Assembly: GCA_964446295.1 (NCBI GenBank)
Contig: CAYUNR010000003.1
Location: forward strand, 1 to 48,475
DNA length: 48,475 nucleotides
DNA from: an uncultured Candidatus Finniella sp.
GTDB lineage: Bacteria > Pseudomonadota > Alphaproteobacteria > Paracaedibacterales > CAITNM01
Direction: 5' to 3'
Below the pieces are notes generated by a model, which was not told the origin of the DNA, did not search any database, and was given only the letters and a program-made list of their open reading frames with translations. How positions within the stretch are numbered: position 1 is the first letter of the stretch; every line of letters begins with the position of its first letter. Below are positions 1,611 to 45,515 of this stretch, in pieces. Both the position numbers and the translations under genes were made by a program.

Positions 1611-1768
1611 CTAGTTTTCCTATGGCTTGGACCTTGGATTCAGTCCTATACCATCCGGAAATTACTCATCTGGACCCTACGATCAAGTCGTAGGGAAACT
1701 GGAGAGAGGGTTGACGCCGACCCCGCAAAACCGTCATCGCGAAGCCTGAAAGGCTGTGGCGGTCCTGT
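1611..1768. repeat. Cluster of dispersed hairpin repeats (degenerate forward unit, inverted unit 1661-1700, GTCAT-box unit 1729-1761)
   Basis: 1675-1695 is the hairpin CCCTACGA-TCAAG-TCGTAGGG, also found at 43518-43538. 1729-1761 is an exact 33-nt inverted copy of 43686-43718. The 69-aa ORF 1584..1793 is read through these repeats. Confidence 0.85.
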
Positions 1769-1902
1769 GAATAATTCCAAACGTTTTAAATAAAAAATGA
1801 TTTAATAATTAATATATATTTAATAAACATTTAACTAAAATTTAATGCCCCCCCTGTAATATAAAACTTGCTATTCACATTTTTTAGTACAGGAAAATAC
1901 TC

Positions 1903-4604: not shown

Positions 4605-4702
4605 ATTAAGTTTGGTTGGTCCCGCGGTCTAGGCCGTGGAATCCATCTACACTCCTTAGTTTCTCTATGGCTTGACCATAGAGTCCAGTCCTATAAAATC
4701 CA
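4605..4702. repeat. Two dispersed repeat units directly 3-prime of the NHL gene
   Basis: 4605-4639 is an exact 35-nt inverted copy of 45481-45515. 4658-4702 is a hairpin-family unit: AGTTT-CTCTATGG-CTTGA-CCATAGAG-TCCAGTCCTAT. Confidence 0.85.
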
Positions 4703-7256: not shown

Positions 7257-8174
7257 ATGACAACAACAACTTCTCCTGTTTCCAGTATTCCTATTTTCGG
7301 ATGGTTCGTCCGTCGTGGCTATTTGCAAGGTGTTTTTTGGGCACTAATGATCTGCCTAGTCAGTTCAACGAATGACGTATTAATGCGCTTTTTGGGAGAG
7401 CGTCTTCACGTTGTGCAAATCATGTTTTTCCGCTTTTTGTTTAGCACCATTGCCGTGCTACCACTTATGCTGCGTCATGAAAAAAATCTTTTCAAAACAG
7501 CGCAACCAAAGACACATGCATTACGTGCTATTGTTGGTGCGGTAGCCCTTGGGCTTTGCTGCCTTTCAGTGAACATTATGCCCTTGGCTGAAAATACGGC
7601 AATCATGTTTTGTGAACCATTATTCTTCCTACCAATGGCATACTTTTTACTAAAAGAAAAAGTTGATAAAAATCGCTGGATTGCAACACTTGTAGGTTTC
7701 TTTGGTTTGCTTGTAATTGTGCAACCAGGTATGGAAAGTTTCCGTATAACCGCGTTTGTACCTATGGGTGCGGCTATGTTGTTTGCTTACCTTTGTGTTA
7801 TGGCAAAACGGATGATTTCAACCGAGCACACCCTAACATTGTTGTTTTACTTTGGTTTGGGAACGTCAATTTTTGCTGGGTTGTTCTTACCATTCTTCTG
7901 GACTGCGCCAACCTTGCGCGAACTGGCATTCTTAGTTTTCTTAGGAATTGGTGCAAACCTTATTCAGGTATGCTTGTTCCGCGCCTATGCAGCGACCGAT
8001 GCTTCTGCCTTAGCACCATTCCGTTATACCGAATTTTTGTTTGCAGGAACGTTTGGCTTTTTGTTCTTCGGTCAAATTCCTGACCTTACAATTATTTTAG
8101 GAGCTGGCGTCATCGGCCTTAGCGCCTTTTATATTTCCTACATGGAAACAAAAAAAGAAAACGCTAAAAAGTAA
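7257..8174 (+). CDS. DMT-superfamily (EamA/RhaT) transporter
   Basis: 305 aa with about 10 hydrophobic segments in two similar halves, typical of EamA-domain permeases. Substrate unknown. Confidence 0.8.
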   Translation: MTTTTSPVSSIPIFGWFVRRGYLQGVFWALMICLVSSTNDVLMRFLGERLHVVQIMFFRFLFSTIAVLPLMLRHEKNLFKTAQPKTHALRAIVGAVALGLCCLSVNIMPLAENTAIMFCEPLFFLPMAYFLLKEKVDKNRWIATLVGFFGLLVIVQPGMESFRITAFVPMGAAMLFAYLCVMAKRMISTEHTLTLLFYFGLGTSIFAGLFLPFFWTAPTLRELAFLVFLGIGANLIQVCLFRAYAATDASALAPFRYTEFLFAGTFGFLFFGQIPDLTIILGAGVIGLSAFYISYMETKKENAKK

Positions 8175-16891: not shown

Positions 16892-17482
16892 TTATTCTAA
16901 GCCTAACCAATCGTCAAACCCATCTAATTTTGCGATTCCTTGTTTGTCAAGAAAAGCTGCCACGTGCGGTGGCACATCGGAAAGCGTGTACAATTTGTCA
17001 TCAAAGTTTTGATAGCAATAGACAGTATATATCACACTTTTATTCCTAGATATAACTTCTTCTATATCATATATCTTAATAGCTTTGTTATCTGAATACA
17101 CTACAACATTAGGGCACATATAATACGTATTTCCTGCGTCTGCAACTGTATAACTTGTTCTTTTATATCTTGGATAGACAAAAATGGTTATGAAATCACG
17201 ATTCCATTCTTGGACTTCGTTCTTCTCAATTTTTGTCTCAAGCCCTACTAGCTGCAACTCCCACAACTCCAACAGTCTTGGGTCCCGGGTAGAATGCTTT
17301 TTTAAAAAAAGCATATCGTCTGGGTCTAGTATGTCACACACTTTTCTGTTCATGCCTAGTCGTAAGCTAGAAGCGGCTTCTACTGGTTTGCCGGTTGCCG
17401 CCCCATTAATCATTGCCGACATGGCAAGCAATATTAAAAGTAGTTTCTGCACTTGTTGGTTCCGATTCTTTATCTGATACAA
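16892..17482 (-). CDS. Secreted protein, leader-cassette family 1 (divergent 5-prime end)
   Basis: 196 aa. The TTG at 17482 sits in the conserved ATAATTG context, but the family-type leader (VQKLLLILLAMSAMINGAATG) begins at a GTG 30 nt downstream (17452). The true start is uncertain. Confidence 0.65.
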   Translation of the reverse strand: MYQIKNRNQQVQKLLLILLAMSAMINGAATGKPVEAASSLRLGMNRKVCDILDPDDMLFLKKHSTRDPRLLELWELQLVGLETKIEKNEVQEWNRDFITIFVYPRYKRTSYTVADAGNTYYMCPNVVVYSDNKAIKIYDIEEVISRNKSVIYTVYCYQNFDDKLYTLSDVPPHVAAFLDKQGIAKLDGFDDWLGLE

Positions 17483-17497
17483 TTATACACAAACTGG

Positions 17498-17546
17498 ATT
17501 CTTTGTCCCTGCGTGGCTCGCAATGACGCTTGGTAACGTCATTACG
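17498..17546. repeat. GTCATTGCGAG-type palindromic repeat
   Basis: Hairpin CGCAATGACG-(8 nt)-CGTCATTACG. The minus strand reads CGTCATTGCGAGCCACGCAGGGACAAAGAATCC, related to the unit at 43722-43756 and 48428-48462. Confidence 0.6.
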
Positions 17547-17566
17547 AGCTTGCAAGGCAGGCGTGC

Positions 17567-18133
17567 TTATTCAGGTAGATCAGGGCTAGCTGCTCTCGTT
17601 GACTCATATATAAAATCGAAATACCTGGCTAAACGCTTATTGTACAGTTCTTCCCGTGTAGGGATTTCAGCGCCTTTTTTAATAAGCGCTTCAAGCTCGG
17701 TAAGCTCTTGGTCATAGAATTCAGGGTCATATAATGCATGCTCACGGGCGCACTTGAGTGCTGTACTTAAAAATATTTTATCCTCTTCAGAAAGATCAAT
17801 AATCCTATCCTGCAGGGCGTATACCGCATCTAGCAACGTAAACGTTTCTTTTTCATATCTACGAACACGTGTCGACTTATCAGCAAAGTATACATTATAC
17901 ATAAAGGATGGTGGGGTAGTCGTAAGATCTAGATTTGGTTCCTTGACGACACGAATCAGATTTTCATGACGTTTTGCTAGAATGATTTGGTGAGCATCTT
18001 GACGCATCTTATATACAGTAGCTCTTGCTAGGACTGCTGCAGCATCTTCTGTTGCTGAAACCGGTATCCCAGTTGCCGCTGCATTAATCATTGTTGACGT
18101 TGCCAACAAGGCCATCAAAAGTATTTTTTTCAA
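17567..18133 (-). CDS. Secreted protein, leader-cassette family 1
   Basis: 188 aa with leader MKKILLMALLATSTMINAAATG. TTG start preceded by AAAGGAGACGATAA. Confidence 0.75.
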   Translation of the reverse strand: MKKILLMALLATSTMINAAATGIPVSATEDAAAVLARATVYKMRQDAHQIILAKRHENLIRVVKEPNLDLTTTPPSFMYNVYFADKSTRVRRYEKETFTLLDAVYALQDRIIDLSEEDKIFLSTALKCAREHALYDPEFYDQELTELEALIKKGAEIPTREELYNKRLARYFDFIYESTRAASPDLPE

Positions 18134-18180
18134 TTATCGTCTCCTTTAAGGACTAAAATATTTAATATGTTGCAGAAAAT

Positions 18181-18198
18181 CACGGGGCATGCCCCGTG
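18181..18198 (-). terminator. Possible terminator hairpin after gene 18303..19463
   Basis: Perfect palindrome CACGGGG-CATG-CCCCGTG, followed on the minus strand by ATTTTCT. The U-tract is weak. Confidence 0.4.
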
Positions 18199-18302
18199 AA
18201 GTATTAGTCTTGATCATCTAGTCAAGTCAGATGGGAAGCAAATGCCCCCCTATTAGTTGTCCTCCTATCAAGTCGGAAGACCTTTTTTGGGAATTGGTCT
18301 AA

Positions 18303-19463
18303 CTAAGGTCGATTTAATATTGCTTTTGCACTTTCATTAATGCCAGAAATCCAATGCGTGTATGCAGTACATTTTTTTTCTGCTTGTGCTCTTCCTTCCT
18401 TAGCTTCTTCTAATTCAGCGAGAAGTTTACCAACTCTATCTACATTATCATTTTGTGTTCTTTGCAGTAATTCTTGAAGTTCAACTCGTAACTTCGTCTC
18501 TTCTAGCTTACCTGCTATCATTTCTGTGTATCGTGTGTGTAGATGCAGTATTTGTTCAGTTTTCTCCGCATGCTCTTTTAGTAGGCTGGCGTATTGCGCA
18601 CTTAATTTTTCCAAAGTACTCTTAGTCGTTTCTAACGAAACCTTATTGATTGCGGCTTGTTCTTCTAAACGTGCCGCTTGTTCTTGTAAATGCGCCGCTA
18701 CTTTTTTCAATTCTAGCACTTCTATTTGGGCATTTTCTCTTTGAGCATTTTCTCTTTGAGCTTGTCGTACTTTTTCCTCTAAAGCGGTAATTTGTGCGTT
18801 TAGCTGAGCCCTATCATCGTTTAATTCAGCGTTATTTTCTACGTACCGTCTAGCAGCTATCCTCATTTTTTCTACAATCTGTTCCTCAGTCCCCCTGAGG
18901 AAACTCCCATAAATGTTTGCACCTGTTACACTCATCAAGATGTCAGCGGCTTCTATTATTGGGGATCTACCGTAAAGTTGATCAATAATTTCTTTTTGAA
19001 TTTCATTTAATTCGACTGAATTTTCTGTCAAGCTCTTAAGTCTAACCTTTGAAAATAATAAATGTACTTTTTTATCCTTAATATCCTCATATAAAGGAAA
19101 TGCTTTTTTTTCACTTGGATTCCTAAAGCCGATTAAACAAGCAAATATACTATTTGAAAAATCTCGAAAATCACCATCTGATAACCCTTCCAGCGTAAAT
19201 TCGAATGATTCTGGTTCAGGTGCTGCTGCTGCTTCTGGGGCAAATAATTCTGCCACAGTAGAAGGAGAAACACGGGTTCCTAATTCTTCAAAGAGGCTGT
19301 CATTGTCTGATACAGATGAGTCGTCTTTAGGTGCGCCTTGTGATGTAACCTCAACTGCACGCTCTTCAGCTATGGGGTCAGGGGTATCAGCCAGGCTTTT
19401 AAGCTCCGCCGCATTAATCATTGCAGACGTTGCCAACAACGTCATCAAAAGTATTTTTTTCAA
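18303..19463 (-). CDS. Secreted coiled-coil protein, leader-cassette family 1
   Basis: 386 aa with leader MKKILLMTLLATSAMINAAELK. TTG start preceded by GGAGACGACAA. The C-terminal ~200 aa are heptad-rich. It shares the IIDQLY..(A/I)IEAAD/IEIAD motif with 20163..21020. Confidence 0.8.
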   Translation of the reverse strand: MKKILLMTLLATSAMINAAELKSLADTPDPIAEERAVEVTSQGAPKDDSSVSDNDSLFEELGTRVSPSTVAELFAPEAAAAPEPESFEFTLEGLSDGDFRDFSNSIFACLIGFRNPSEKKAFPLYEDIKDKKVHLLFSKVRLKSLTENSVELNEIQKEIIDQLYGRSPIIEAADILMSVTGANIYGSFLRGTEEQIVEKMRIAARRYVENNAELNDDRAQLNAQITALEEKVRQAQRENAQRENAQIEVLELKKVAAHLQEQAARLEEQAAINKVSLETTKSTLEKLSAQYASLLKEHAEKTEQILHLHTRYTEMIAGKLEETKLRVELQELLQRTQNDNVDRVGKLLAELEEAKEGRAQAEKKCTAYTHWISGINESAKAILNRP

Positions 19464-19549
19464 TTGTCGTCTCCAAAAAGGGATAAAAATTATTGCAAAA
19501 TCAATATTTGTACTTAAACGTTAATCACATATGCAAATATTGCATAACT

Positions 19550-19579
19550 TATATAGCACATTATTTCATTATGTGTCAA
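19550..19579 (-). promoter_or_regulatory. Sigma70-like promoter of gene 18303..19463
   Basis: Minus strand: TTGACA-18 nt-TATATA, about 90 nt upstream of the TTG start. It lies in a block repeated upstream of 19675..19944 and 16029..16724. Confidence 0.4.
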
Positions 19580-19618
19580 ATTCGTGGTTTTATCTTATTC
19601 TAGCAGCTTTGTGAAATT

Positions 19619-19650
19619 AAAAAAACCAAGGGCGCAGTGCTCTTGGTTTT
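19619..19650 (-). terminator. Terminator of gene 19675..19944 (conserved cassette)
   Basis: A-run / CCAAGGGC-GCAGT-GCTCTTGG / T-run. There is one mismatch when read on the minus strand. Same element as 20105-20137. Confidence 0.5.
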
Positions 19651-19674
19651 CTGGTGATTTTATTTTTTTATAAT

Positions 19675-19944
19675 CTAGCTAGTGCTGAGGAAAGATGAGT
19701 AATGATTTGTTATAGTTGTACTTTTAGTAATATCCATATTTTTTACTTTTCTTGATAACTCATGAATGTCCCCAATGTCCTCGCCCATTATTTCCGATAT
19801 CTCTTCGTCACTATCTACGTCTGTTTGTGGTGATGAGTTTAGGAATTTCCTCTTAGTTATGTCTCTGGGAGATGTATCGTTTGTATTCATCTCCATCGCC
19901 ATTGATGATGCTGTTAACAACGCCATCAAAAGTATCTTTTTCAA
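19675..19944 (-). CDS. Short secreted protein, leader-cassette family 1 (possibly truncated member)
   Basis: 89 aa with leader MKKILLMALLTASSMAMEM. TTG start preceded by AAAGGAGACGATAA. It has its own promoter and terminator cassette. Confidence 0.6.
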   Translation of the reverse strand: MKKILLMALLTASSMAMEMNTNDTSPRDITKRKFLNSSPQTDVDSDEEISEIMGEDIGDIHELSRKVKNMDITKSTTITNHYSSFLSTS

Positions 19945-20005
19945 TTATCGTCTCCTTTAAAGACTAAAAAAATTAATGAATTGATCTGTGGAAAATCACA
20001 TAACT

Positions 20006-20035
20006 TATATAGCGTATTATTTCATTATGTGTAAG
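20006..20035 (-). promoter_or_regulatory. Sigma70-like promoter of gene 19675..19944
   Basis: Minus strand: CTTACA-18 nt-TATATA, homologous to 19550-19579. Confidence 0.35.
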
Positions 20036-20104
20036 ATGTATGTTTTTATCTTATTCAAATAAAAAACTCAGGGTATTTTATTATTCATTCAGCTTTGTGA
20101 AATT

Positions 20105-20137
20105 AAAAAAACCAAGAGTGCAGTGCTCTTGGTTTTT
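20105..20137 (-). terminator. Terminator of gene 20163..21020 (conserved cassette)
   Basis: Minus strand: CCAAGAG-CACTGCA-CTCTTGG followed by TTTTTTT, 25 nt past the stop. Confidence 0.6.
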
Positions 20138-20162
20138 GGTGTTTTGATTTATTCTGCAATTA

Positions 20163-21020
20163 TCATTGAGTTATTGCACCAGCACCGCTGCTATTGAGAA
20201 TAGCCTTAAGCTTAGCATTTTCTCTTTTTGCTTCTGCCAATCTTTCTTTAAGAGCGGCATTTTCTGCATTTTTGGTTTCTATCATACCTATTACTCTGGT
20301 CAATTTCTCTTCTATAGTAGCCGCAGCTTGTGCGGATCGTGCTCTTAGTTCTTCCTGTATTTGACTTAAAGATTTGGTAAATTCTTGTTTCTCTCTAACA
20401 TTTTCTAGTGTCATCAAATTAAATTTTGTTAAATTCTCAAAATATTTTGCCTGCCACTCGTCCCTCTCGCTTTCTCCTTTCTTAAGATCTCTTATAACTT
20501 TTAGTATTACATTTCCCATATTTTTATCGGTGTCTCGGAACTTGAAACTGCAGCTTTTTATACTTAGTTCATCTGCTATCTCAATTAGACGTGCGCGTGA
20601 AGCAGTGCTTGAATAAAGCTGATCAATAATGTTCAAGCGCAGTGATTCTTGCGTTGCGCCAAGCTCAGGAAAATTTTCTGAGCAGTATATAAACTCCATT
20701 ATCGTCTCTTCTGGATGTGGCAGCGTTATAGTTTTATCACTAACATCTTCATCTGAAGAGAGTACGTCTAACGCTTTAGCTCTAATGAACTGGCGCATCA
20801 CCTCTTGTACCTCAACAGCCGATGGAGAAGATGCGCCGAATAGCGTAGCCATCCATTCACAGTGGCTTTTAAGGGTAAAAGTAAATTCACCTTTTGTGGG
20901 TACAGTAACTCCCCATGATAAGCCTATAGCTAGCTCATCAACTGGCGCAAAGCCACTTCCATCTGCTGCACGAATCATTACTGACGTTGCCAGCAACGTC
21001 ATCAAAAGTATTTTTTTCAA
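20163..21020 (-). CDS. Secreted coiled-coil protein, leader-cassette family 1
   Basis: 285 aa with leader MKKILLMTLLATSVMIRAADGSG. TTG start preceded by AAAGGAGACGATAA. The body is paralogous to 18303..19463. Confidence 0.8.
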   Translation of the reverse strand: MKKILLMTLLATSVMIRAADGSGFAPVDELAIGLSWGVTVPTKGEFTFTLKSHCEWMATLFGASSPSAVEVQEVMRQFIRAKALDVLSSDEDVSDKTITLPHPEETIMEFIYCSENFPELGATQESLRLNIIDQLYSSTASRARLIEIADELSIKSCSFKFRDTDKNMGNVILKVIRDLKKGESERDEWQAKYFENLTKFNLMTLENVREKQEFTKSLSQIQEELRARSAQAAATIEEKLTRVIGMIETKNAENAALKERLAEAKRENAKLKAILNSSGAGAITQ

Positions 21021-21077
21021 TTATCGTCTCCTTTATAGCAGGTCAATGAACAAATAATTTGATTGTACTTTCTGGGT

Positions 21078-21180
21078 TCCCGTTTTCACCGGGATGACAG
21101 CGCACTCACTTCTGTCGTTCCTGCACACACTTCTGTCATCCCCGCACTCACTTCTGTCATCCCCGCGTAGGCGGGGATCC
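21078..21180. repeat. Composite repeat: hairpin, 3 x 21-nt tandem repeat, terminal hairpin
   Basis: The first hairpin is TCCCG-TTTTCAC-CGGGA. It is followed by three 21-nt units at 21104-21166 (ACTCACTTCTGTCGTTCCTGC / ACACACTTCTGTCATCCCCGC / ACTCACTTCTGTCATCCCCGC). The last unit forms the hairpin CCCCGC-GTAG-GCGGGG followed by ATCC. Confidence 0.85.
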
Positions 21181-21226
21181 ACCAGATAGTCCAACAAAAT
21201 TAATTTCGGGTCTTGGGGCTTAGGCG

Positions 21227-22192
21227 CTATTGAGGTACGCCCAACCTCATCGTCCGATGATGTCTACGTCCATGTTTCTTTTTGCCCCTTAATGCTTTAT
21301 TCTCTTCTTTCAAAGCATAAATTAACTTGTTTTTTCGTTGGTCATCTTCAGTATTAAGGAATGCTAAATGGTTAATAACTTCGTTGTACTTTTGTACTTC
21401 ATCCTCTAATATTTCGATTTGAAAAAGTAATCTATCTCGCTTTTCCTGTAATTCACTATTCAGCGACTGACTTTCCAAGAACCTATATTCCCAAGAAGCA
21501 AGTTCTTTGGCCAGTCTTGCAACATGTGCTTCTAACTGAGAACTATGACTAGTCAACGTTTCAATCTCATGTGCACTTACTTCATGAAAGTCATTTAAAT
21601 CATGGGCTTGAGCTTCTAATTCAGCTGCTAATCTTGCCTTCTCTTTTTCTATGCTTCTTAATTCCGTTGTTTGCTTTTCTAAAGCAAATTCAGCTCTCTC
21701 TGCTGCCATCTGCAATTCATGCATAACTCCTTCGTGGGTAACTGCTGTTTCTGCTGCTTCTTGTTTAAGCTTTTCCATTGCAGTTTCTAGCGCTGTCTTC
21801 TCTTCTCTTACTCTTAGTAGCGTCTGAACAAGCATATCATTTTCTTGTCTAGATAAAATTAATGTCTCCTCTCTTGCTGTTAACGTACTGGTCAGTTCTT
21901 TATTCTTTGTTAGTAACTGATCGCGTTCAGTTGAAACTGTTCCAATCATACGGCGTGTATTGGTCAGTTTCTCCTGCGATGCTTGAAGTTGAGCTAAATG
22001 TTCTTGCTGCAGCGTTTCAATTTCTCTTAAATGCTGCTGTTTTAAACCGTCTATCGCATCACCACTGATTGCCGCACTACCCGCACGAGCGCGCCTTAAA
22101 ACATTATCCTCCGCTGGTGAAGAACTTCCATCCGCTGCCTCCATCACAATTGACGAACCTGTCAACAACAACACTGCTATTATTTTTTTCAA
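21227..22192 (-). CDS. Secreted long coiled-coil protein, leader-cassette family 1 (divergent)
   Basis: 321 aa with leader MKKIIAVLLLTGSSIVMEAADGSSSP. TTG start preceded by AGGGGATAATAA. Almost the whole body is heptad-like (E/L/Q/A/T-rich), with a basic tail KKKHGRRHHR. Confidence 0.75.
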   Translation of the reverse strand: MKKIIAVLLLTGSSIVMEAADGSSSPAEDNVLRRARAGSAAISGDAIDGLKQQHLREIETLQQEHLAQLQASQEKLTNTRRMIGTVSTERDQLLTKNKELTSTLTAREETLILSRQENDMLVQTLLRVREEKTALETAMEKLKQEAAETAVTHEGVMHELQMAAERAEFALEKQTTELRSIEKEKARLAAELEAQAHDLNDFHEVSAHEIETLTSHSSQLEAHVARLAKELASWEYRFLESQSLNSELQEKRDRLLFQIEILEDEVQKYNEVINHLAFLNTEDDQRKNKLIYALKEENKALRGKKKHGRRHHRTMRLGVPQ

Positions 22193-22386
22193 TTATTATC
22201 CCCTAGATGTAAAAAATTTTAATAAAATTAATTATGAGTAATATCACGTAGTTTGCATAGGCATAATTTCTCTGAATGCCAAATTTATGATTTTATATTG
22301 TCGTGATAAAACTTTAAGAGCACTTTTTGACCAATTCAGAATCTTATGTTGATGTTCTTAGTGCCATTAATCTGGCTTCCAAAGTC

Positions 22387-23121
22387 TTAATTTCTGCTGC
22401 AAAAAAATCTCAGACTAAATCGTGATTTCTTAATTTCTCTAAGCGGTGAAAGTATCTGCAAATGCTTGTTGCCTTTTTTTCTCCATAAACGCTCTATCTT
22501 AGAGGGTTTGCCCACATGATACGCTACCTGCTGGTGATTTTTAGGGATTTCTGTATAAGTGTATTCTCTAAATCCTGGGGCAAATTGCCAGGTAAATTGT
22601 TGTGGCTTGTCTTTAATAGGAACCATGTCTTGCCAGTAAATGGGAGACCAATTTTCTATTATAAGGTTGAAGCCCGATTTTAAAGCATAACGAACATTTT
22701 GCTCAAGCCTAGAACTTCCTTCGTAAAATGTTAGAAGTGCGTCGCTATGTAAATGATATTTTGGGGGTGTTACCCAAATAGTTTTTTCTCCGTAATAAGA
22801 TCCGTTTAGCGAAAGCAGATGCTGTGCTGTCGGGTATTCTGGGGAAACTTTTGCGCAACCATACATTCTTTCATTTAAAGTGCTTCTATTCAGCAGTGGG
22901 ATAACATAAACGCGAATGGTATCTTCTTTAACAGTAACTTTTTTTGGGGACACTTGCTCTTGATTAAGAGGTATTTCGTTATCATAACCCAGAAACATTC
23001 TATCATAAAAAAGATCGTCTTTTGTTTCTTCCCAACCCTTATCAATGGCTGTATCAATAGCTGCTGCTGATAAACGTATTCCCAAAAATAACAAAAAGCT
23101 TAGCAAAAACATTCTTCTCAA
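22387..23121 (-). CDS. Secreted hypothetical protein
   Basis: 244 aa with leader M(RRM)FLLSFLLFLGIRLSAAA. The TTG at 23121 has GGAG 7 nt upstream; an alternative ATG lies at 23112. Not coiled-coil and no motif recognised. Confidence 0.65.
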   Translation of the reverse strand: MRRMFLLSFLLFLGIRLSAAAIDTAIDKGWEETKDDLFYDRMFLGYDNEIPLNQEQVSPKKVTVKEDTIRVYVIPLLNRSTLNERMYGCAKVSPEYPTAQHLLSLNGSYYGEKTIWVTPPKYHLHSDALLTFYEGSSRLEQNVRYALKSGFNLIIENWSPIYWQDMVPIKDKPQQFTWQFAPGFREYTYTEIPKNHQQVAYHVGKPSKIERLWRKKGNKHLQILSPLREIKKSRFSLRFFCSRN

Positions 23122-23265
23122 AGATTTTCTCCAATTATGCGCAATAATAATATTCTATTATGAACATGTTGCTCATATAATTAGTATATTTTGAAATGTC
23201 TATCAATTTCAAGAGATTAGCTTTGACTTCGTTTGGTTGAGGCTGTTTACACAACATCCAAATTT

Positions 23266-28931: not shown

Positions 28932-29059
28932 CTTTGTTATATTATGTCAAATAAAATACAGCCTATAATTCTAAAATTCTTTTTAAGTCCATGTCAAAGT
29001 AATTTTCATCTCTAATGCTGATTGAATTGAATAATTATGGTTGCCTCAAGAAGCCACTT

Positions 29060-29093
29060 CCTACACGGAAACTTTGCTCGCTGAGCCATTAAA
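29060..29093. repeat. Copy of the ~40-nt element that also forms the 3-prime end of the pilin-like gene
   Basis: CCTACACGGAAACTTTGCTCGCTGAGCCATTAAA, compared with 34791-34830 and 32597-32636. Confidence 0.7.
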
Positions 29094-29127
29094 AAAACTC
29101 CACGAGAGTATTCTCCTGCGGAGTTTT
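29091..29127 (-). terminator. Terminator of gene 29136..30170 (conserved family-2 cassette)
   Basis: Minus strand: AACTCCGC...GTGGAGTT (8 bp including one G.U) followed by TTTTTTT. Homologous hairpins occur at 31815-31850 and 32671-32701. Confidence 0.6.
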
Positions 29128-29135
29128 GTTGATTT

Positions 29136-30170
29136 TTATTTAACTGAGTTTAAATTAATTAAATTATAGTACACTCCTTCGGCTTCAGCTTTTTCAATAT
29201 TTGAATACGCCATAATCGCATTAACTGTTTCCTCTTTATTAGGAGCTCGCTTAAACCTTTGAGTGAATTGCTTACAAGCTTCTCCAGCTTCAAAATAAAG
29301 TCGATTGCGACGAGCTTCTGGAGTTTCATTAGCCGCTGCTATTTCGATCGGAGGTGCAGCATGTGGAGGATTGTGTAGTATTGGTGCTTCTGCATTATTA
29401 AAGTATCTTCCTCTTAGGAATATTTCATAAGCTTGTTGCCTATCAGGCCTTTGCTGTTCTTCTGCTCTCTCGCGCATATCTGCTGGGTTCTCTCTATCCC
29501 TTCCGATCGGAGGTGCAGCATGTGGAGGCATTGGTGCTCTAGCTCTAGCATCTTCTGCTTCAATTTGCCTTACGTATGCTTCATCAGCTTCATTTTGTAA
29601 TCGCAGTCTTTCACGCCTTTGCGCCTCTTCCTCTTGAAGTTCTCGCGCTAACCTTTCGTCTGCGGTTTCTTGCCAACGGTCATAGCCATAAGCTGCTGCA
29701 GCTGGTTTTGCCTCATTATATTGTAGCGGATTTTTTATATCACGTTGTGCGCGCAGTGCTTCTTCAGCAGAAGGATATTGTCTTCCATAGCTATTATCTG
29801 CGGGTAGTTTTTGATCACCACTATAGGCCATTGGAGCTGGATAACCATATTCTTCTAAAAGTGCACCTACCCTGTTCTCTTTGAGAGCAACTGCAATTTT
29901 GAGGATCGCAGTAAACCCACCGTCTCTTTTAAAAATATTATTATATGCATGAAAAATTTTATTTTTTGTTATTGTATCTGCTGTTTCAAAATAGGAAAAA
30001 AGATCGAATATCACATAACGAGTCTGACCTTCTGTTGTATCGTTTACACGTTTTTGTATAATGGCTGACAGCTCTTCCACTGACCCAGCGCTATAGCCAT
30101 TACTTGTAAACAGCAGGCAAATAAGTATTAATAGCTTTGAAAAACTGTTGTAAAAAGAAGTCCTATTCAT
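29136..30170 (-). CDS. Secreted protein, family 2 (one DSAIA-type domain, E/R-rich region, PPHAAPPI repeats)
   Basis: 344 aa from the ATG at 30170 (MNRTSFYNSFSKLLILICLLFTSNGYSA), homologous to the leader of 31904..32482. Motifs YVRQIEAEDARA and 2 x PPHAAPPI. Confidence 0.75.
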   Translation of the reverse strand: MNRTSFYNSFSKLLILICLLFTSNGYSAGSVEELSAIIQKRVNDTTEGQTRYVIFDLFSYFETADTITKNKIFHAYNNIFKRDGGFTAILKIAVALKENRVGALLEEYGYPAPMAYSGDQKLPADNSYGRQYPSAEEALRAQRDIKNPLQYNEAKPAAAAYGYDRWQETADERLARELQEEEAQRRERLRLQNEADEAYVRQIEAEDARARAPMPPHAAPPIGRDRENPADMRERAEEQQRPDRQQAYEIFLRGRYFNNAEAPILHNPPHAAPPIEIAAANETPEARRNRLYFEAGEACKQFTQRFKRAPNKEETVNAIMAYSNIEKAEAEGVYYNLINLNSVK

Positions 30171-31814: not shown

Positions 31815-31850
31815 AATAAAAACTCCACGGGAGCATTCTCCTGCAGAGTT
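31815..31850 (-). terminator. Terminator of gene 31904..32482 (family-2 cassette)
   Basis: Minus strand: AACTCTGC...GTGGAGTT (two G.U pairs) followed by TTTTATTT. Confidence 0.45.
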
Positions 31851-31903
31851 TTGTTGATTTTATCTAGTAGAGTTTAAACTTAATTATCTGATTATATTGC
31901 TCA

Positions 31904-32482: not shown

Positions 32483-32596
32483 TTGGTGCCTCATGAAAAG
32501 TTATTTTCAAGAGTATTGTGACCCGGCAGTTCTTAAAAAATAATTAATCATAAAATATAGATTAATTTTATGGAAAATAAAGGTGATTTAGATTTT

Positions 32597-32636
32597 TAAC
32601 GCCTACAAGGAAACTTCGCCCACTGGGCCATTGAAA
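32597..32636. repeat. Copy of the ~40-nt element that also forms the 3-prime end of the pilin-like gene
   Basis: TTAACGCCTACAAGGAAACTTCGCCCACTGGGCCATTGAA, compared with 34787-34830. Confidence 0.7.
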
Positions 32637-32670
32637 TTTTTGGTTGGTTTGGAAGCCGAGTTTTGCTGTG

Positions 32671-32701
32671 AAACTCCACAAGAGTATTCCCTCGTGGAGT
32701 T
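32671..32701 (-). terminator. Conserved 3-prime hairpin after gene 32719..34608
   Basis: ACTCCAC...GTGGAGT, a perfect 7-bp stem homologous to the other family-2 terminators. The U-tract on the minus strand is short, so function is uncertain. Confidence 0.35.
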
Positions 32702-32718
32702 CAATTGATGACAGTGTA

Positions 32719-34608: not shown

Positions 34609-34785
34609 AAAAGACCTTTCAAATATTTAATAGTGGCCATAGTAAATTCTGAGTCTGAATATTTAATATTTTTAATTGTTGTTATTTTAACATAGGGAAT
34701 ATTAAAAGCAGGTTAATAATATAAAAATCTTAAAATATAGAATTATATATCCTATCTCAATATGTAAATCAAGATTGAAGCGCTT

Positions 34786-35529
34786 TTAACGCCTACACGG
34801 AAACTTTGCCCACTGGGCCATTAAATTATTACGGCTTACATATAATAGAGTGTCGTCAAAAATAGATGGCGCTGTTCGTTGCTGGGTTTTGGTTATGAAA
34901 ACTCCACCTCGGGCGGCATTGTTAATTTTATCAACATCGCCACCATCTACTGGTTGAATACTTCCATTATCAAGGGCGTATCCACCACTGTTTCCATGGG
35001 CAATTAACACCACCGCCACAAAATCTGGCGCCACTACACACGGTTGTTTGTCAGCTGTTTGCACATCCAAATTTCCACCACTGGGTGCTTTGCAAAACAC
35101 CGTTTTAGGGTCAATAGCAAGCGTTGGGTCTGTGTATATAAAACTAATCCGTGACGATGCTAAGTTCGGCTCCACCACATAGGTCATCCAATGATGGTTA
35201 CCATCTTTCGCGGTTTTCTCATCAATCCCTAAGGTTTTATAGGGCACAAAACCGGCCTTTGTATCATTCGTGCAAACTGCCTGCGCTTCACCATTTGCAC
35301 TTAACGCAGGGCAGGGCAATCGCTTGTTCATTAGCACATAGCCCGCTAACGATTCTACAATTTTTTCCTGGTGTGCATGCGTTACTTTCACCTGATGCCA
35401 TTGCTGCAATTTGCCCAACAGCGGCATGCCCATATAGGCAACCACCCCCAATATACTTAGGGCAATTGCCACTTCAAGCAGGGCAAAAGCAGGGATGGTT
35501 TTATACGGTTGCAGCATCGTCTTCCACAT
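34786..35529 (-). CDS. Prepilin-type N-terminal domain protein (type IV pilin / T2SS pseudopilin-like)
   Basis: 247 aa. KTIPA/FALLEVAIALSILGVVAY matches the class III leader plus hydrophobic helix, with Glu at +5 and Ala instead of Gly at -1. An alternative start lies at 35517. The last 11 codons lie in a dispersed repeat. Confidence 0.7.
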   Translation of the reverse strand: MWKTMLQPYKTIPAFALLEVAIALSILGVVAYMGMPLLGKLQQWHQVKVTHAHQEKIVESLAGYVLMNKRLPCPALSANGEAQAVCTNDTKAGFVPYKTLGIDEKTAKDGNHHWMTYVVEPNLASSRISFIYTDPTLAIDPKTVFCKAPSGGNLDVQTADKQPCVVAPDFVAVVLIAHGNSGGYALDNGSIQPVDGGDVDKINNAARGGVFITKTQQRTAPSIFDDTLLYVSRNNLMAQWAKFPCRR

Positions 35530-39836: not shown

Positions 39837-39882
39837 AGTTTCACCGCGGCTCAGACCGCGGTGTCCAGTTCTATGCCATCCG
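39837..39882. repeat. Hairpin-family repeat unit
   Basis: AGTTT-CACCGCGG-CTCAGA-CCGCGGTG-TCCAGTTCTAT-GCC-ATCCG. Confidence 0.85.
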
Positions 39883-39984
39883 CTTTTTTCGTCATATTCA
39901 CGAAAACGAGTATCCACCCATTAAGTCTTTTTTAATACAAAAAATATAAACTAAGTATAGTTTTTGAGATTCTAATATTTAATA

Positions 39985-42900: not shown

Positions 42901-43428
42901 ATTCCTACAGCTATCGTACCTGCTTATATAGAGCATTATTTTGATTCAGATTATGCATTTGCATCTGTTATGCCCCCTGCTGGTCAGCGCCTTAGTCTTG
43001 CGCAAAAAATTGCGAATTATCAAAATATGGACCTACTGCTCCAATATTTTTACCAGCATATATATGTTGGGCCACATGAATTAGTGAATCAAATTTATCA
43101 ATACTTGCATTCAGCTAATCAAGTCACTAGAGAAGAATTCTTTGATCATGTTCGTGCCATGTTAAAAACACGTCGTCCTTTTACTGATTGGAAAGATGAA
43201 GATTCAGAACTAGATTTTATAAGAGAACTAATGCAAGAACGTTATTGTTCTGCTGTTGATCCAGCTATGTTCACCAGAAGAGGCATTGAAATCATTCTAT
43301 TTTATGCAGGGTATTTGGCTTGGAATGGCCCTCATCATGAACATCCGCTTATTGCAGATTGGCAAGAAAACCTAGATTGGTTACGTGCTTCTGATGCTGA
43401 TGCTTACAGCAAAATTTATACCCATTAA
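39985..43428 (+). CDS. Very large hypothetical protein (candidate secreted effector)
   Basis: 1147-aa uninterrupted ORF. GTG start with a possible leader (SKCIQAVLAIFMVTHIVA/EP); an alternative ATG lies 19 codons in. No family recognised. The motif (Q).LI.AIP recurs three times. Confidence 0.75.
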   Translation: MSILFRHYSKCIQAVLAIFMVTHIVAEPMPLANHKDIAIFREMKKQEIATKKAEFNTKLDVVGALGVLENDLAVHIIDPITFSRYALGMMIGNGYPDGVTTGLRANPNERAYIEHIIKMASAHSRALNFSPDQIWSANNDARSIPALREHIATLNNLSRIAPAEPSFEYAPQLGERYQDLDSMLREICASFAGTPAEALIRQAQIDFADVNTKPFLLTFISLSEFEQSEIVDVFNKYQTDDGIDLVTAYRIVAASCTNKDEAWRIIESHVLTPVQPLIAAIPAGPITMLDHTGSTLAQRDAIRAFLGALEDLGFSANKKEICLNALFRTLNLPAAAHAIAPPIQALIEAIPLMPKITDVLAATRFTLIHYLPIKNCYAAINLLEPIQRDIHYCALIEKIRRINFDKESVQINVLNRQKNVMIEGLIASRLKDFTPPKELISPVPAIAPVPPEVIDSVHALAPLIAGPNLHEHIAEYGEPPNAGFPASDDYRFIDTCLAFNNRLANFLARHCVVNYIPAASDAQRQQIIHTARQKLAQLDTHHLGTLIEKKCAKIALIEGVLHQLLSNQPALPPPQLLLHHQDTVANRNAIVQALVIDRLAEMGLDLGDDPDTEDQIRQAVEAEIPQVLPLPAVGHDYSNVQNVIALIDAIPPPETHVFTNMEKIKEIPSANWDDNLQNCVFGDHPALRRNAAESEQAYWARIGLYCIGVYNTKIKPHIFPDHLEATFNAVGGALPQLLPFTTPMFDAPNDASNVFSFHTPAGAPIFDQAGNLLTQQNIPAGMQDNVYAQQIYEFDLTRANLNAAIPQFRTNIARAYERVHAYAIKTLTELFDTGTALVDPQAGQNLVHNWVFPHGFTPERIELCKKTLFIFSYFDRPGGNYDEDYADMQMLIGRFAHCPDGKKTGIENIASRALTALTGQVLAEAEDFATFVNNIILRTFKSNTVDELAAHQHYENVSIETTIKHRNQAFWNIPTAIVPAYIEHYFDSDYAFASVMPPAGQRLSLAQKIANYQNMDLLLQYFYQHIYVGPHELVNQIYQYLHSANQVTREEFFDHVRAMLKTRRPFTDWKDEDSELDFIRELMQERYCSAVDPAMFTRRGIEIILFYAGYLAWNGPHHEHPLIADWQENLDWLRASDADAYSKIYTH

Positions 43429-43510
43429 CCACTACATGGAATTTTGAAAAATTGTGGGGTACAATTTAAGGGAATTGGTTTTGGTTTAATACGGCATGAA
43501 TTCCCCCTTC

Positions 43511-43757
43511 GCAGTTTCCCTACGACTTGATCGTAGGGTCCAGTCCTATGACATCCGGACATTACTCACTGGATTCCGCGATCAAGTCGCGGAAAAACTT
43601 GGTGGTAGTAGGCTCGTGACTCTCTTTCTAGTTTCACCGTGGCTAGACCACGGTGTCCAGTTTTATAATATCCGCAAGTATGGATCGCCACAGCCTTTCA
43701 GGCTTCGCGATGACGGTTCCTTCGTCTTTGCGAGCGCAGCGCGGCAATCCACACTTT
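43511..43757. repeat. Largest cluster of dispersed repeats (five units)
   Basis: The units are: 43513-43557 (hairpin CCCTACGA/TCGTAGGG); 43561-43599 (inverted unit, TTCCGCGA/TCGCGGAA); and 43630-43674 (CACCGTGG/CCACGGTG). Also 43686-43718 (inverse of 1729-1761) and 43722-43756 (identical to 48428-48462). The 101-aa ORF 43496..43801 is an artefact of these units. Confidence 0.9.
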
Positions 43758-43805
43758 TGTATAAATTCTACCCCATCAACCCCTTGACCCAAGGATTATA
43801 AACAT

Positions 43806-45467
43806 ATGTTTCCTCGCTTCTTCGCAGTTTTGATCGCTCTCTCAAGCCTTGCAGCGAACACCGTAAACGTGCAGCTTCTAGCACCTGAAAATCACCAAAA
43901 ACAAAATGTTCCCTTTGTCCTGGTTTTTGACCTGCCCGAACACGCCCACATTTACGCCCCCGATAGCGAAGATTCCCCCACCAATATCGAATGGCATTTA
44001 CCCAAAGGCGTCACCCTTGACCACATAAAATGGCCTCCCCTTCAAACTCTAAGCTTGCATGGCCACAAGTTCCAAGCATACGAGGGCAAAGTCCATGTCC
44101 ACGGAACTTTCACGGCAAATGATTCCACCCATGATCTGAGCGCCATCAAAGCCAACATCAGCTATACTGTTTGTGACAAACTTTGCACTCCAGAAAAAAC
44201 CACCACTGCGGTTAAACTTGTAACGCCTTCCCAATGGAACGCTTTGCCAAAACCCCACACCGAACTAGGCTTTTTTAGCTTTCACATGGCGCTGATGTTT
44301 TTATTCGCGCTAATCGGTGGCTTAATTTTGAACTTAATGCCCTGCGTTTTGCCCATTTTGTCTTTAAAAATCATGACCCTTACTCAACACGCACAGCCCA
44401 AAAAACTAAGGGCAAGCGGCCTATTTTTCACGGCCGGCACCGTTGTTAGTTTTTGGGCGCTGGCGGGATTATTACTAGCCTTTCGTGCCGCCGGACACCA
44501 AGTAGGGTGGGGCTTTCAGCTACAATCTCCAGCCGTTGTCACCGCACTTATTTTTGTATTTTTCGCTTTCGCTTTGAATCTATTTGGCGTGTTTGAAATA
44601 GGCACGTCATTTACTAAGCTATCAAGTAAAGGCGGAGATTCCTCAACCCCAATGGGCAGCTTTTTCCACGGAGTGCTCGCCTGCATTGTCGCCACCCCAT
44701 GTTCAGCACCATTTATGGGCGCATCGGTTGGGTTTGCCTTAACTCAAAGTCCCTTTCACGGCTTTGCCATTTTTACAGGCCTTGCCCTTGGGTTATCCGC
44801 TCCATATTTATTAATCTGCTTAAACCCCAAAACCGCCAAATTCCTGCCAAAACCAGGCGGGTGGATGAACACCTTCAAAACCATTTTGGGCTTTGGCATG
44901 GCCGCGTCTGTACTGTGGCTCATGCATGTGCTGGCCGACCAGGTTTCTATGGCGGTATTTTTAAATGTGCTGGTGGCCCTTCTTGCCCTTAGCATTGCCG
45001 CGTGGATTTATGGATACTGGGGTGGGATTAATCGCGCGCCGTACTTGCGATTATTGGCAACTGTCTCAGCTTTAGCATTGAGTGGTGCTGCCTACCACTA
45101 CGCTACCAAACCAACCAATGCCCTCACAGATCAATGGATTGCCTACAACCATACCATGGTTGAAAATTTACGCAAAAAATCCCCTGTGCTGATTGATTTC
45201 ACAGCCAAATGGTGCATAACCTGCCAGGTTAATAAGCAAATGGTGCTGAACACTTCTAAAGCCCATCAATTGTTTAAAGACAAAAACGTCCAATTGGTCA
45301 AAGCCGACTGGACTACCTATGACGCATCTATCACCAAAGCCCTGGAACAATACGGCCGCAGCAGTGTGCCGTTGTATGTGTTGTTATATCCCAATGGACA
45401 TCACAAAATCCTGCCGGAGCTGTTAACTTTTAGCATTCTAAAAGAAGCCTTGGCTGATTTAGGGTAG
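43806..45467 (+). CDS. dsbD: Thiol:disulfide interchange protein DsbD family (N-terminal domain, TM core, C-terminal thioredoxin)
   Basis: 553 aa with a leader. The N-domain carries YTVCDKLC, the TM core carries LMPCVLPIL and ATPCSAPF, and the C-terminal thioredoxin fold carries FTAKWCITCQ. Confidence 0.85.
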   Translation: MFPRFFAVLIALSSLAANTVNVQLLAPENHQKQNVPFVLVFDLPEHAHIYAPDSEDSPTNIEWHLPKGVTLDHIKWPPLQTLSLHGHKFQAYEGKVHVHGTFTANDSTHDLSAIKANISYTVCDKLCTPEKTTTAVKLVTPSQWNALPKPHTELGFFSFHMALMFLFALIGGLILNLMPCVLPILSLKIMTLTQHAQPKKLRASGLFFTAGTVVSFWALAGLLLAFRAAGHQVGWGFQLQSPAVVTALIFVFFAFALNLFGVFEIGTSFTKLSSKGGDSSTPMGSFFHGVLACIVATPCSAPFMGASVGFALTQSPFHGFAIFTGLALGLSAPYLLICLNPKTAKFLPKPGGWMNTFKTILGFGMAASVLWLMHVLADQVSMAVFLNVLVALLALSIAAWIYGYWGGINRAPYLRLLATVSALALSGAAYHYATKPTNALTDQWIAYNHTMVENLRKKSPVLIDFTAKWCITCQVNKQMVLNTSKAHQLFKDKNVQLVKADWTTYDASITKALEQYGRSSVPLYVLLYPNGHHKILPELLTFSILKEALADLG

Positions 45468-45480
45468 GGGGCTGATTATC

Positions 45481-45515
45481 CCACGGCCTAGACCGCGGGA
45501 CCAACCAAACTTAAT
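45481..45515. repeat. 35-nt exact inverted copy of 4605-4639
   Basis: CCACGGCCTAGACCGCGGGACCAACCAAACTTAAT is the reverse complement of 4605-4639. It contains the imperfect hairpin CCACGG-CCTAGA-CCGCGG. Confidence 0.9.

Follow-up and report, generated by a model that had tools for sequence, protein, structure and literature searches.

The window analyzed here, a stretch of 48,475 nt from an uncultured Candidatus Finniella sp. (GCA_964446295.1, contig CAYUNR010000003.1), is alphaproteobacterial, with a GC content of ~40%, and is 85 to 92% identical to Finniella inopinata metagenome-assembled genomes over orthologous stretches. Its genes include COX3, DsbD, a gene transfer agent (GTA)-like head module, ankyrin and NHL proteins, and many orphans. 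Among them is dispersed a family of short hairpins, here called AGTTT units, of the form AGTTT-arm-CTNGA-arm′-TCCAG, in which the two 8-bp arms are perfectly complementary. A mechanical scan for perfect hairpins flanked by GTTT or CCAGT finds six intact units in the window, four on the plus strand and two on the minus strand (Table 1). These are the same six copies that a preliminary description, made from the letters of the DNA, had listed with perfect 8-bp arms. When the arms are left free, the pattern AGTTT-N8-CTNGA-N8-TCCAG has five matches in the window, versus 0.00 expected from 100 dinucleotide-preserving shuffles; the sixth copy (39837) is missed by this 5-nt-loop pattern because its loop is 6 nt long. 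In DNA folding, each unit forms its own hairpin (z = −6.9).

The units are arranged in four ways: singly (solo), tail-to-tail with a shared linker, head-to-head with a recurrent 25- to 30-nt spacer, and in alternating arrays, as in the tandem duplication of ~143 nt at L025 6857–7116 (L-numbers denote loci of other genomes, P-numbers protein homologs, and X1 to X4 sequencing runs). Positions 43511 to 43757, previously described as belonging to this family throughout, comprise a trimer of units (+, −, +) and then two modules of another hairpin family. The units thus end at 43674, and 43675 to 43757 carries CGTC-type modules instead. The common linker reported for both two-hairpin composites of the window is present in each. 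Of the two copies reported as degenerate, the one at 1613 is borne out by its score and has a perfect stem in its L021 ortholog, and the one at 15673 is a 5′ half copy only. Since that remnant lies upstream of GGAG-ATG, the likely true portal start, it is intergenic.

Table 1. Hairpin units and adjoining repeat modules of the window, in order of position. Scores are covariance model bit scores; SRM is the published hairpin pattern discussed in the text.
Feature	Position	Strand	Sequence	Remarks	Score (bits)
Degenerate unit	1613..1657	+	3′ arm damaged	Left half of tail-to-tail composite 1613–1700	29.7 (E = 4e-5)
Intact unit	1661..1700	−	Arms CCCTACGA/TCGTAGGG	Right half of composite; identical in ortholog L021	62.4
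Solo unit	4658..4702	+	Arms CTCTATGG/CCATAGAG	Between convergent genes	
Remnant	15673..15716	+	Tag, 5′ arm, and loop only	18-nt exact match to AGTTTTCCTATGGCTTGA	
Head-to-head dimer, TGTC-tagged hairpins	21072..21182			Strict SRM matches 21072–21099 and 21155–21182, the sole two in the window	
Solo unit	39837..39882	+	Arms CACCGCGG/CCGCGGTG; 6-nt loop CTCAGA	Kept in ortholog L036	
Decayed CGTC-1-type hairpin	39885..39912	+		Directly behind unit 39837; intact in L036 as CGTC ATACTCGC GAAA GCGGGTAT CCA	
Intact unit 1	43513..43557	+	AGTTT CCCTACGA CTTGA TCGTAGGG TCCAG + tail TCCTATGACATCCGGA		61.3
Intact unit 2	43561..43599	−	Arms TTCCGCGA/TCGCGGAA	Tail-to-tail with unit 1	53.3
Head-to-head spacer, units 2/3	43600..43629		TGGTGGTAGTAGGCTCGTGACTCTCTTTCT	Similar to head-to-head spacers of L003 and L007	
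Intact unit 3	43630..43674	+	Arms CACCGTGG/CCACGGTG; loop CTAGA; tail TCCAGTTTTATAATATCCG		51.3
CGTC-tagged hairpin module	43680..43718	−	CGTC-AT-CGC..GCG-AT-CCA	Inverted copy 1729–1765; different family, same mosaic	
High-copy module	43719..43757	+	CCTTCGTCTTTGCGAGCGCAGCGCGGCAATCCACAC	CGTC tag, weak hairpin, TCCA tail; ~18x unique depth in run X1	

We find that the two arms of a unit change together. Free-arm scans (AGTTT-N8-CT-N(1,2)-GA-N8-TCCAGTYYTAT) against species-representative genomes and Joint Genome Institute (JGI) metagenomes return 31 matches in contigs of Candidatus Finniella, Candidatus Odyssella, and other Alphaproteobacteria (Holosporales-like; GC ~0.40 to 0.44), with 0 to 3 arm mismatches and none at all in 25 of the 31. 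Matches in unrelated taxa (27 in number, with 3 to 8 arm mismatches) look like chance. Among 30 distinct units, 98.8% of stem cells pair, versus 33 to 41% when the partner column is slid, and double changes are present in six of the eight pairs; as these 30 had been preselected to have ≤3 arm mismatches, it is the free-arm scans that provide an unbiased test. A covariance model (R1) run over 177 kb gives bimodal scores, with 36 matches above 46 bits, a handful at 20 to 31 bits, and then noise. Covarying stems had been taken in the preliminary description as a sign of selection on structure. Both the pairing statistics and the separation of relatives from chance uphold this, and, as far as sequence comparison goes, the complementarity and covariation of the stems are real.

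The stems are nevertheless not free to vary. The arms had been described as variable, and their changes are indeed compensated, but they fall into ~11 recurring subtypes of the form YNCYNYGR, with stem positions 3 (C-G) and 7 (G-C) nearly fixed. AGTTT and TCCA are invariant in the 30 units, and the final G of TCCAG is present in more than 90%. Of the 41 unit variants found, 37 have a loop of 5 nt and the others one of 6 nt. All 40 real unit variants have the tag AGTT(T), and when units are taken with their flanks, 30 of 40 have perfect stems.

Conservation extends beyond the stem in one case: three genomes share, without a single difference, ~75 nt made up of the solo unit at 4658 and its near flanks; their adjacent genes are 84 to 88% identical. 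This invariance could be explained by selection and by gene conversion alike. Other orthologous copies have decayed or hybrid arms, the latter in L014 and L030. Beside the same unit, one relative only (L015 ~7434–7478, compared with window 4643–4657) has a 61-nt extra module between a 38-nt repeat and the solo unit. Here an otherwise invariant unit has a neighbor that is polymorphic for presence or absence.

Covarying stems and conserved flanks are also what a structured RNA might display, and the units could be cis-acting elements of their neighbors, such as mRNA 3′-end stabilizers, attenuators, or processing sites. Many copies stand right behind stop codons or before starts, copies are found in contigs of one metatranscriptome, stem mismatches on the top strand are G·T in six cases and A·C in two, and the orthologous unit at 4658 is invariant in three genomes. 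However, the excess of G·T over A·C is not significant, and the metatranscriptome contigs are directionless, of low identity, and may include DNA. A U-tract after the stem is absent, and the units have no Rfam match at gathering or permissive thresholds (E as high as 10): with Rfam 15, only a tRNA-Val reaches its gathering score in the window, and nothing scores better than E ~6 at 43400–43850. Further evidence on this reading comes from the behavior of the units in relatives, described below.

Two other readings were rejected. Intrinsic terminators would require a T-run abutting the stem, which the units do not have. For attC sites of integrons, the end motifs are wrong and cassettes are absent.

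In relatives, AGTTT units accompany a gene. A 95-aa open reading frame (ORF) adjoins the units of L025 and matches Pfam GIY-YIG at 2.3e-12 over 95 aa. The same gene is bracketed by inverted AGTTT units, with their TCCAG tails facing it, at five independent loci (L025, L061, L062, L063, and L064) that sit in different neighborhoods (rplM, rpoN, dapD, and others). The upstream unit, which ends 6 to 14 nt before the ATG, is intact only in L063 and L064; the copies in L025, L061, and L062 are degenerate. Directly 3′ of the stop codon, four of the five loci have an inverted unit; at the fifth (L064), the contig stops 6 nt past the stop codon. A paralog in L010 (41% identical) is bracketed by inverted CGTC-tagged hairpins, and for homologs of 56 to 64% identity in five further contig sets the brackets are (C/T)GTC..CCA hairpins in the same layout. 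Four of these sets have homologs named Berkelbacteria, Calditrichia, Thermodesulfobacteriota, and Ignavibacteria, and the fifth is L069. The bracketing layout is therefore found at 11 of 11 ssn-homolog loci (the five AGTTT loci, L010, and the five further sets), and residues Y6, Y17, and E64 are invariant, with the same numbering, in all 11 proteins. When the GIY-YIG protein was searched against NCBIfam and PDB, no informative family name emerged; WD40 matches in PDB were discounted, as they contained no qualifying stretch.

The gene name used above is that of the Ssn family of Chenal et al. (Nat Commun 2025, PMC11893778). Ssn proteins are single-domain GIY-YIG proteins of ~94 aa (cd10448) and site-specific endonucleases that act on single-stranded DNA (ssDNA) only. 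They are the first endonucleases of this kind, each homolog with its own hairpin. Ssn binding to the NTS/SRM hairpin takes place on one strand, and the cut falls a few bases upstream; the C after the palindrome is important, and mutation of Y6, Y17, or E64 kills Neisseria SsnA. The genes are laid out as NTS-ssnA-NTS or SRM-ssn-SRM. The Neisseria NTS contains dRS3, which had been filed as a CGTC-1 repetitive extragenic palindromic (REP) element by Di Nocera et al. (2013, PMC3733652). Their CGTC-tagged REP superfamily includes Neisseria dRS3, the Rickettsia palindromic elements (RPEs) RPE-4 and RPE-6, and Wolbachia repeats, and its enzyme was then not known.

With its single GIY-YIG domain, its length, its Y6, Y17, and E64 residues, and its homology to SRM-flanked proteins, the 95-aa protein qualifies as a predicted Ssn-family nuclease. 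Because an ssn-like gene is bracketed in relatives by inverted units with tails inward, we place the units in this known selfish repeat system. They are very likely lineage-specific SRM (NTS-like) hairpins, that is, recognition sites for a small single-domain GIY-YIG Ssn nuclease, and form an AGTT(T)-tagged branch of the CGTC-tagged REP superfamily. We consider it highly probable, too, that the selection on structure acts on a DNA hairpin read by a GIY-YIG Ssn, and not on an RNA element or on a substrate of a REP-associated tyrosine transposase (RAYT). The preliminary description had proposed either an RNA element or a DNA hairpin recognized by a REP/RAYT- or IS200/IS605-like enzyme. A DNA hairpin with a dedicated enzyme is retained from this proposal; RNA and RAYT/IS200 are not, the GIY-YIG gene being the one that is flanked. 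Its further statement that no such enzyme is encoded in the window is correct, as no transposase, RAYT, or GIY-YIG gene is found there.

By analogy with Neisseria SsnA, Ssn would bind the folded top strand only while it is single-stranded, would read stem, loop, and tail, and would cut a few bases 5′ of the tag. The units are probably cut in this manner by an Ssn-type nuclease. Because such a nuclease would need the hairpin, only compensated stem variants would persist. Both the cassette and its derivatives without the gene (dimers, solo ends, and alternating arrays) would spread or reshuffle at the DNA level, and this would yield intergenic mosaics and occasional in-frame insertions.

The composites of the window offer a view of such derivatives. 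In the ssn cassette, TCCAGTGAATAC-ATG comes next after the left unit, and the gene ends in ..AAATAAT-CCGGATGCTATAGAACTGGA, behind which lies the right unit. The composites read TCCAGTGAGTAATG-TCCGGATGTCATAGGACTGGA, which is leader plus trailer without the ORF. More precisely, the tail of unit 2 (TCCAGTGAGTAATG) is the leader that precedes the ssn start codon in relatives, the tail of unit 1 (TCCTATGACATCCGGA) is the reverse complement of the trailer behind the ssn stop codon, and the solo-unit tail TCCAGTYYTAT-NNN-ATCCG is the ssn trailer on the opposite strand. Because of this colinearity with leader and trailer, the two-hairpin composites of ~90 nt resemble ssn cassettes from which the gene has been lost. 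No deletion intermediate between cassette and composite was seen. For the composites, neither a target-site duplication nor an empty site with exact borders could be resolved, and the gene of their gene-bearing counterpart is a nuclease, not a known transposase. The possibility raised earlier that the copies are parts of a larger element with terminal inverted repeats thus holds to the extent that they are the inverted ends of the ssn cassette, which is not a classical insertion sequence (IS). Downstream of one ssn copy (L062 780–1039), ~130 nt comprising a unit, the spacer GGATCACAGTCAAGCCATAAGAAGACTCAAGAAGATGCCCC, and a unit is repeated in tandem, which shows local array growth beside the ssn gene.

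Comparison of strains indicates turnover of the mosaics. The spacer that holds 43511–43757 has flanks ~97% identical in the close relative L041, and the repeat mosaic between them is wholly different. This wholesale replacement disfavors a cis-acting RNA for the neighboring genes. It also points to recent change, since the mosaics differ between close strains.

Units are also found within a gene. In L020 (6155–6234) and L028 (3273–3352), a head-to-head pair lies in frame inside ccmF, and in an alignment of 27 CcmF homologs the 31 unit-encoded residues are absent from six more distant homologs. Other homologs have other repeat-derived inserts of differing composition in the same loop (alignment columns ~370–500). 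The homolog P0024 carries two further units at other sites; in-frame ccmF units are thus present at three different sites. The more distant L059 has two in-frame copies (10188–10213 and 11538–11563) with GACG in the tag position. The CcmF loop is a hotspot of in-frame repeat-derived inserts, among which the peptide (F/V)PRLDRGIQ recurs.

Location in frame inside ccmF, like the role of the units as ends of a nuclease gene cassette, speaks against structured RNAs that act on neighboring genes. So do the activity of characterized Ssn on ssDNA only (PMC11893778) and the orientation of solo units relative to flanking genes, which is mixed (five antisense, three sense, and three neutral). Taken with the replaced spacer of L041, these observations make the RNA explanation very unlikely.

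Orientation relative to replication is more uniform. In a small sample (n = 11 independent loci; GC skew taken over loci of 2.4 to 14 kb, most ~8 kb, and the 48-kb window), 10 loci have the top strand of their solo units on the C-rich strand. In the part of the window from 38 to 48 kb, the genes are on the plus strand and the GC skew is still negative, so the bias of the solo units follows replication, not transcription.

Such a replication-strand bias would suit REP/REPIN sequences mobilized by RAYTs (Y1 HUH transposases), and solo units, head-to-head and tail-to-tail dimers, and alternating arrays make up the classical picture of REPs and bacterial interspersed mosaic elements (BIMEs). A hairpin with a conserved 5′ tag fits as well. 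The units might therefore be mobilized by a RAYT, or be ends of an IS200/IS605 element encoded elsewhere. We regard this as extremely improbable, because the GTAG tag is absent (GTAGTTT occurs, by chance, in just 2 of 41 copies) and the gene flanked by units encodes a different nuclease, of the GIY-YIG type. The search for RAYT or TnpA(IS200) genes that the preliminary description had advised came back empty: phmmer and tblastn with an approximate IS200 TnpA query, weak for distant RAYTs, gave no match in ~320 kb around units. Pfam searches of the window ORFs, of 20 of the 33 deduplicated unit-flanking ORF clusters, and of several more ORFs gave no Y1_Tnp and no transposase; the unit-flanking ORFs were all housekeeping or orphan genes.

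To estimate abundance, relative depth alone was used, as Logan contigs of runs X1 to X4 break at repeats. The 31-mers of the CCCTACGA subtype have depths of 15 to 50x, versus ~5x for unique sequence, which suggests roughly 3 to 10 copies per genome. In run X1, 93% of the sampled words of the window have a depth of ~5; a 303-nt contig from this run (depth 4.75) carries a unit fused to the 3′ half of an ssn homolog.

This modest copy number would also be compatible with inert relics of the ssn cassette, passive palindromes that are kept by gene conversion, serve as recombination hotspots, and meet no acting enzyme in this genome. The window is without an ssn gene, copies 1613 and 15673 are degenerate, arms are hybrid in L014 and L030, and the left-end units beside ssn are degenerate in L025, L061, and L062. 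Against such inertness stand the perfect stems kept in 30 of the 40 real variants, the invariance of unit 4658 while its flanks diverge by 12 to 16%, the mosaics that differ between close strains, and an ssn homolog whose depth in the sample equals that of the genome of the window. On balance, we think it unlikely that the units are relics. The opposite extreme is a tentative suggestion that we put forward with some doubt: the SRM-ssn-SRM cassette might even now be an active element, mobilized by its GIY-YIG Ssn. It would shed gene-less tail-to-tail dimers, resembling miniature inverted-repeat transposable elements, as well as solo ends, and would insert with a replication-strand bias and occasionally in frame. 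The AGTT tag and the many stem subtypes would then mark a new cleavage specificity or co-evolving pairs of nuclease and hairpin.

How far the units conform to the published SRM pattern, HGTCWYN(0-2)YYVSBRHN(0-5)WNVSBRGN(0-2)RNCYNB (PMC11893778), depends on the tag. The units have a conserved nonpalindromic 5′ flank and a C after the palindrome (CYRG), with a tag that differs from CGTC. Their predicted DNA fold is that of a 20- to 50-nt inverted repeat forming an ssDNA hairpin, and repeats flank ssn on both sides in relatives, not inside the window. The strict pattern matches hairpins that flank three of the distant ssn homologs. In the window it matches only the dimer of Table 1, one hairpin of which reads TGTC ATCCCCGC GTAG GCGGGGAT CCA. 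Judged by this pattern, the genome of the window also carries the classical repeat type, and two hairpin families coexist in it.

Several observations weigh against assigning the AGTTT units to Ssn and against their mobility. As written, the SRM pattern matches 0 of 10 AGTTT subtypes; with the fourth tag base relaxed (GTC to GTY), it matches 6 of 10, which favors the assignment. The deviating base falls among the three positions that control cleavage in Neisseria. There, changing the stem while keeping the hairpin abolished activity, so 11 subtypes under one enzyme need explaining. Several paralogs could account for them, as could recognition of the invariant C18-G35 and G22-C31 pairs alone. 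The ssn gene is absent from the window, and its presence in the same genome is only suggested, by the depth of the X1 contig. The case for nuclease action on AGTTT units is one of analogy, with Neisseria SsnA and three further homologs that have been assayed. The mobility of the units is inferred from comparative patterns, among them a strand bias seen in the small sample noted above. Alternatively, the gene may have entered between units that were already in place.

Comparison with known repeat systems places the units closest in layout to the SRM/NTS of Ssn (PMC11893778). They share with it a directional 30-nt hairpin, a conserved 5′ tag, a similar stem length, a C-Y-R-G tail, and inverted hairpins on both sides of a ~95-aa GIY-YIG gene with conserved Y6, Y17, and E64. 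Intergenic mosaic clusters and enrichment in symbionts are likewise common to both. Unlike SRM/NTS, the units are tagged AGTT(T) and not HGTC, have ~11 compensated stem subtypes, and have an 11-nt conserved tail past CCAG. Their host lineage, the Holosporales (Finniella/Odyssella), is not mentioned in the parts of PMC11893778 consulted. The CGTC-tagged superfamily (PMC3733652) resembles the units in its 8-bp stem, 5-nt loop, and CCA tail (TCCAG in the units), in its clusters and its head-to-head and tail-to-tail dimers, often heterodimers, and in the lack of an associated Y1 transposase. Intragenic in-frame copies encoding 20 to 30 residues and a predominance in Alphaproteobacteria and intracellular bacteria are further likenesses. 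In contrast to that superfamily, the tag of the units is not CGTC, TGTC, or CCTC, the first two stem positions are not A-T, and tail-to-tail dimers are common (they are rare in CGTC families).

REP/BIME and REPIN-RAYT systems of Gammaproteobacteria are also built from small tagged palindromes with alternating arrays and conserved linkers. In their REPtron layout, inverted repeats enclose the gene of the cognate nuclease, and the active form is ssDNA; they use a GTAG tag and an HUH Y1 enzyme, whereas AGTTT units accompany a GIY-YIG gene. RPEs, of an obligate intracellular alphaproteobacterium, share in-frame copies inside genes, here in the ccmF loop. They differ in that RPE-1 is 100 to 150 bp and unrelated in sequence, and only RPE-4 and RPE-6 belong to the CGTC superfamily.

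The association of Ssn with SRMs has already been published (PMC11893778); the AGTT-tagged family is newly recognized, and the published pattern misses it. Current censuses would therefore undercount the Ssn/SRM family, and the AGTT-tagged pair is a candidate for a new cleavage specificity. Whether and how these repeats move was left open in the papers of 2013 and 2025. The composites, the turnover between strains, the three ccmF sites, and the strand bias bear on this question. If the cassette is active, the spread of CGTC-type REPs would become testable and a new ssDNA-cutting specificity would be gained. There is also a consequence for genome annotation, since ORF 43496–43801 and similar ORFs are repeat mosaics, not genes. 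This 101-aa ORF lies entirely within the repeat mosaic and encodes FVFASAARQSTL, which is also found in the CcmF insert of P0004. It is almost certainly not a gene.

The window contains other repeats as well. A 38-nt repeat (ATTAAGTTTGGTTGGTCCCGCGGTCTAGGCCGTGGAAT) is present in two inverted copies, 97% identical, at 4605–4642 and 45478–45515. Its parts are an AGTTT tag, an insert of 6 nt, a hairpin of its own, and an ATCC tail, with a G·T stem pair in the window and L011 and an A-T pair in L015, and it may be a third unit type. The gene for the NHL-repeat protein (window 1785–2003 and 1903–4599; L003, L019, L030, and L053) is one of a large set of paralogs, 16 of which occur in the loci examined. 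These paralogs share a ~200-nt upstream region that includes a C7 run, and units often lie just upstream.

On the minus strand, positions 11452–15608 hold the GTA-like or prophage head module, with portal, S78 prohead protease, major capsid, gp6-like connector, and head completion proteins. The region 16000–23200, also on the minus strand, is a run of paralogous orphan genes that have their conserved 5′ ends and upstream sequence in common (repeat families D2, D3, and D4). Within this run, hairpin-plus-T elements resembling terminators are repeated at 19621–19650 and 20108–20137. Another dispersed intergenic repeat, unrelated to the AGTTT units, occurs at 29052–29136, 31818–31861, 32594–32712, and 34784–34830, and consists of CCTACAAGGAAACTTCGCCCACTGGGCCATT and the hairpin AAAAACTCCACGAGAGTATTCTCCTGCGGAGTTTT.

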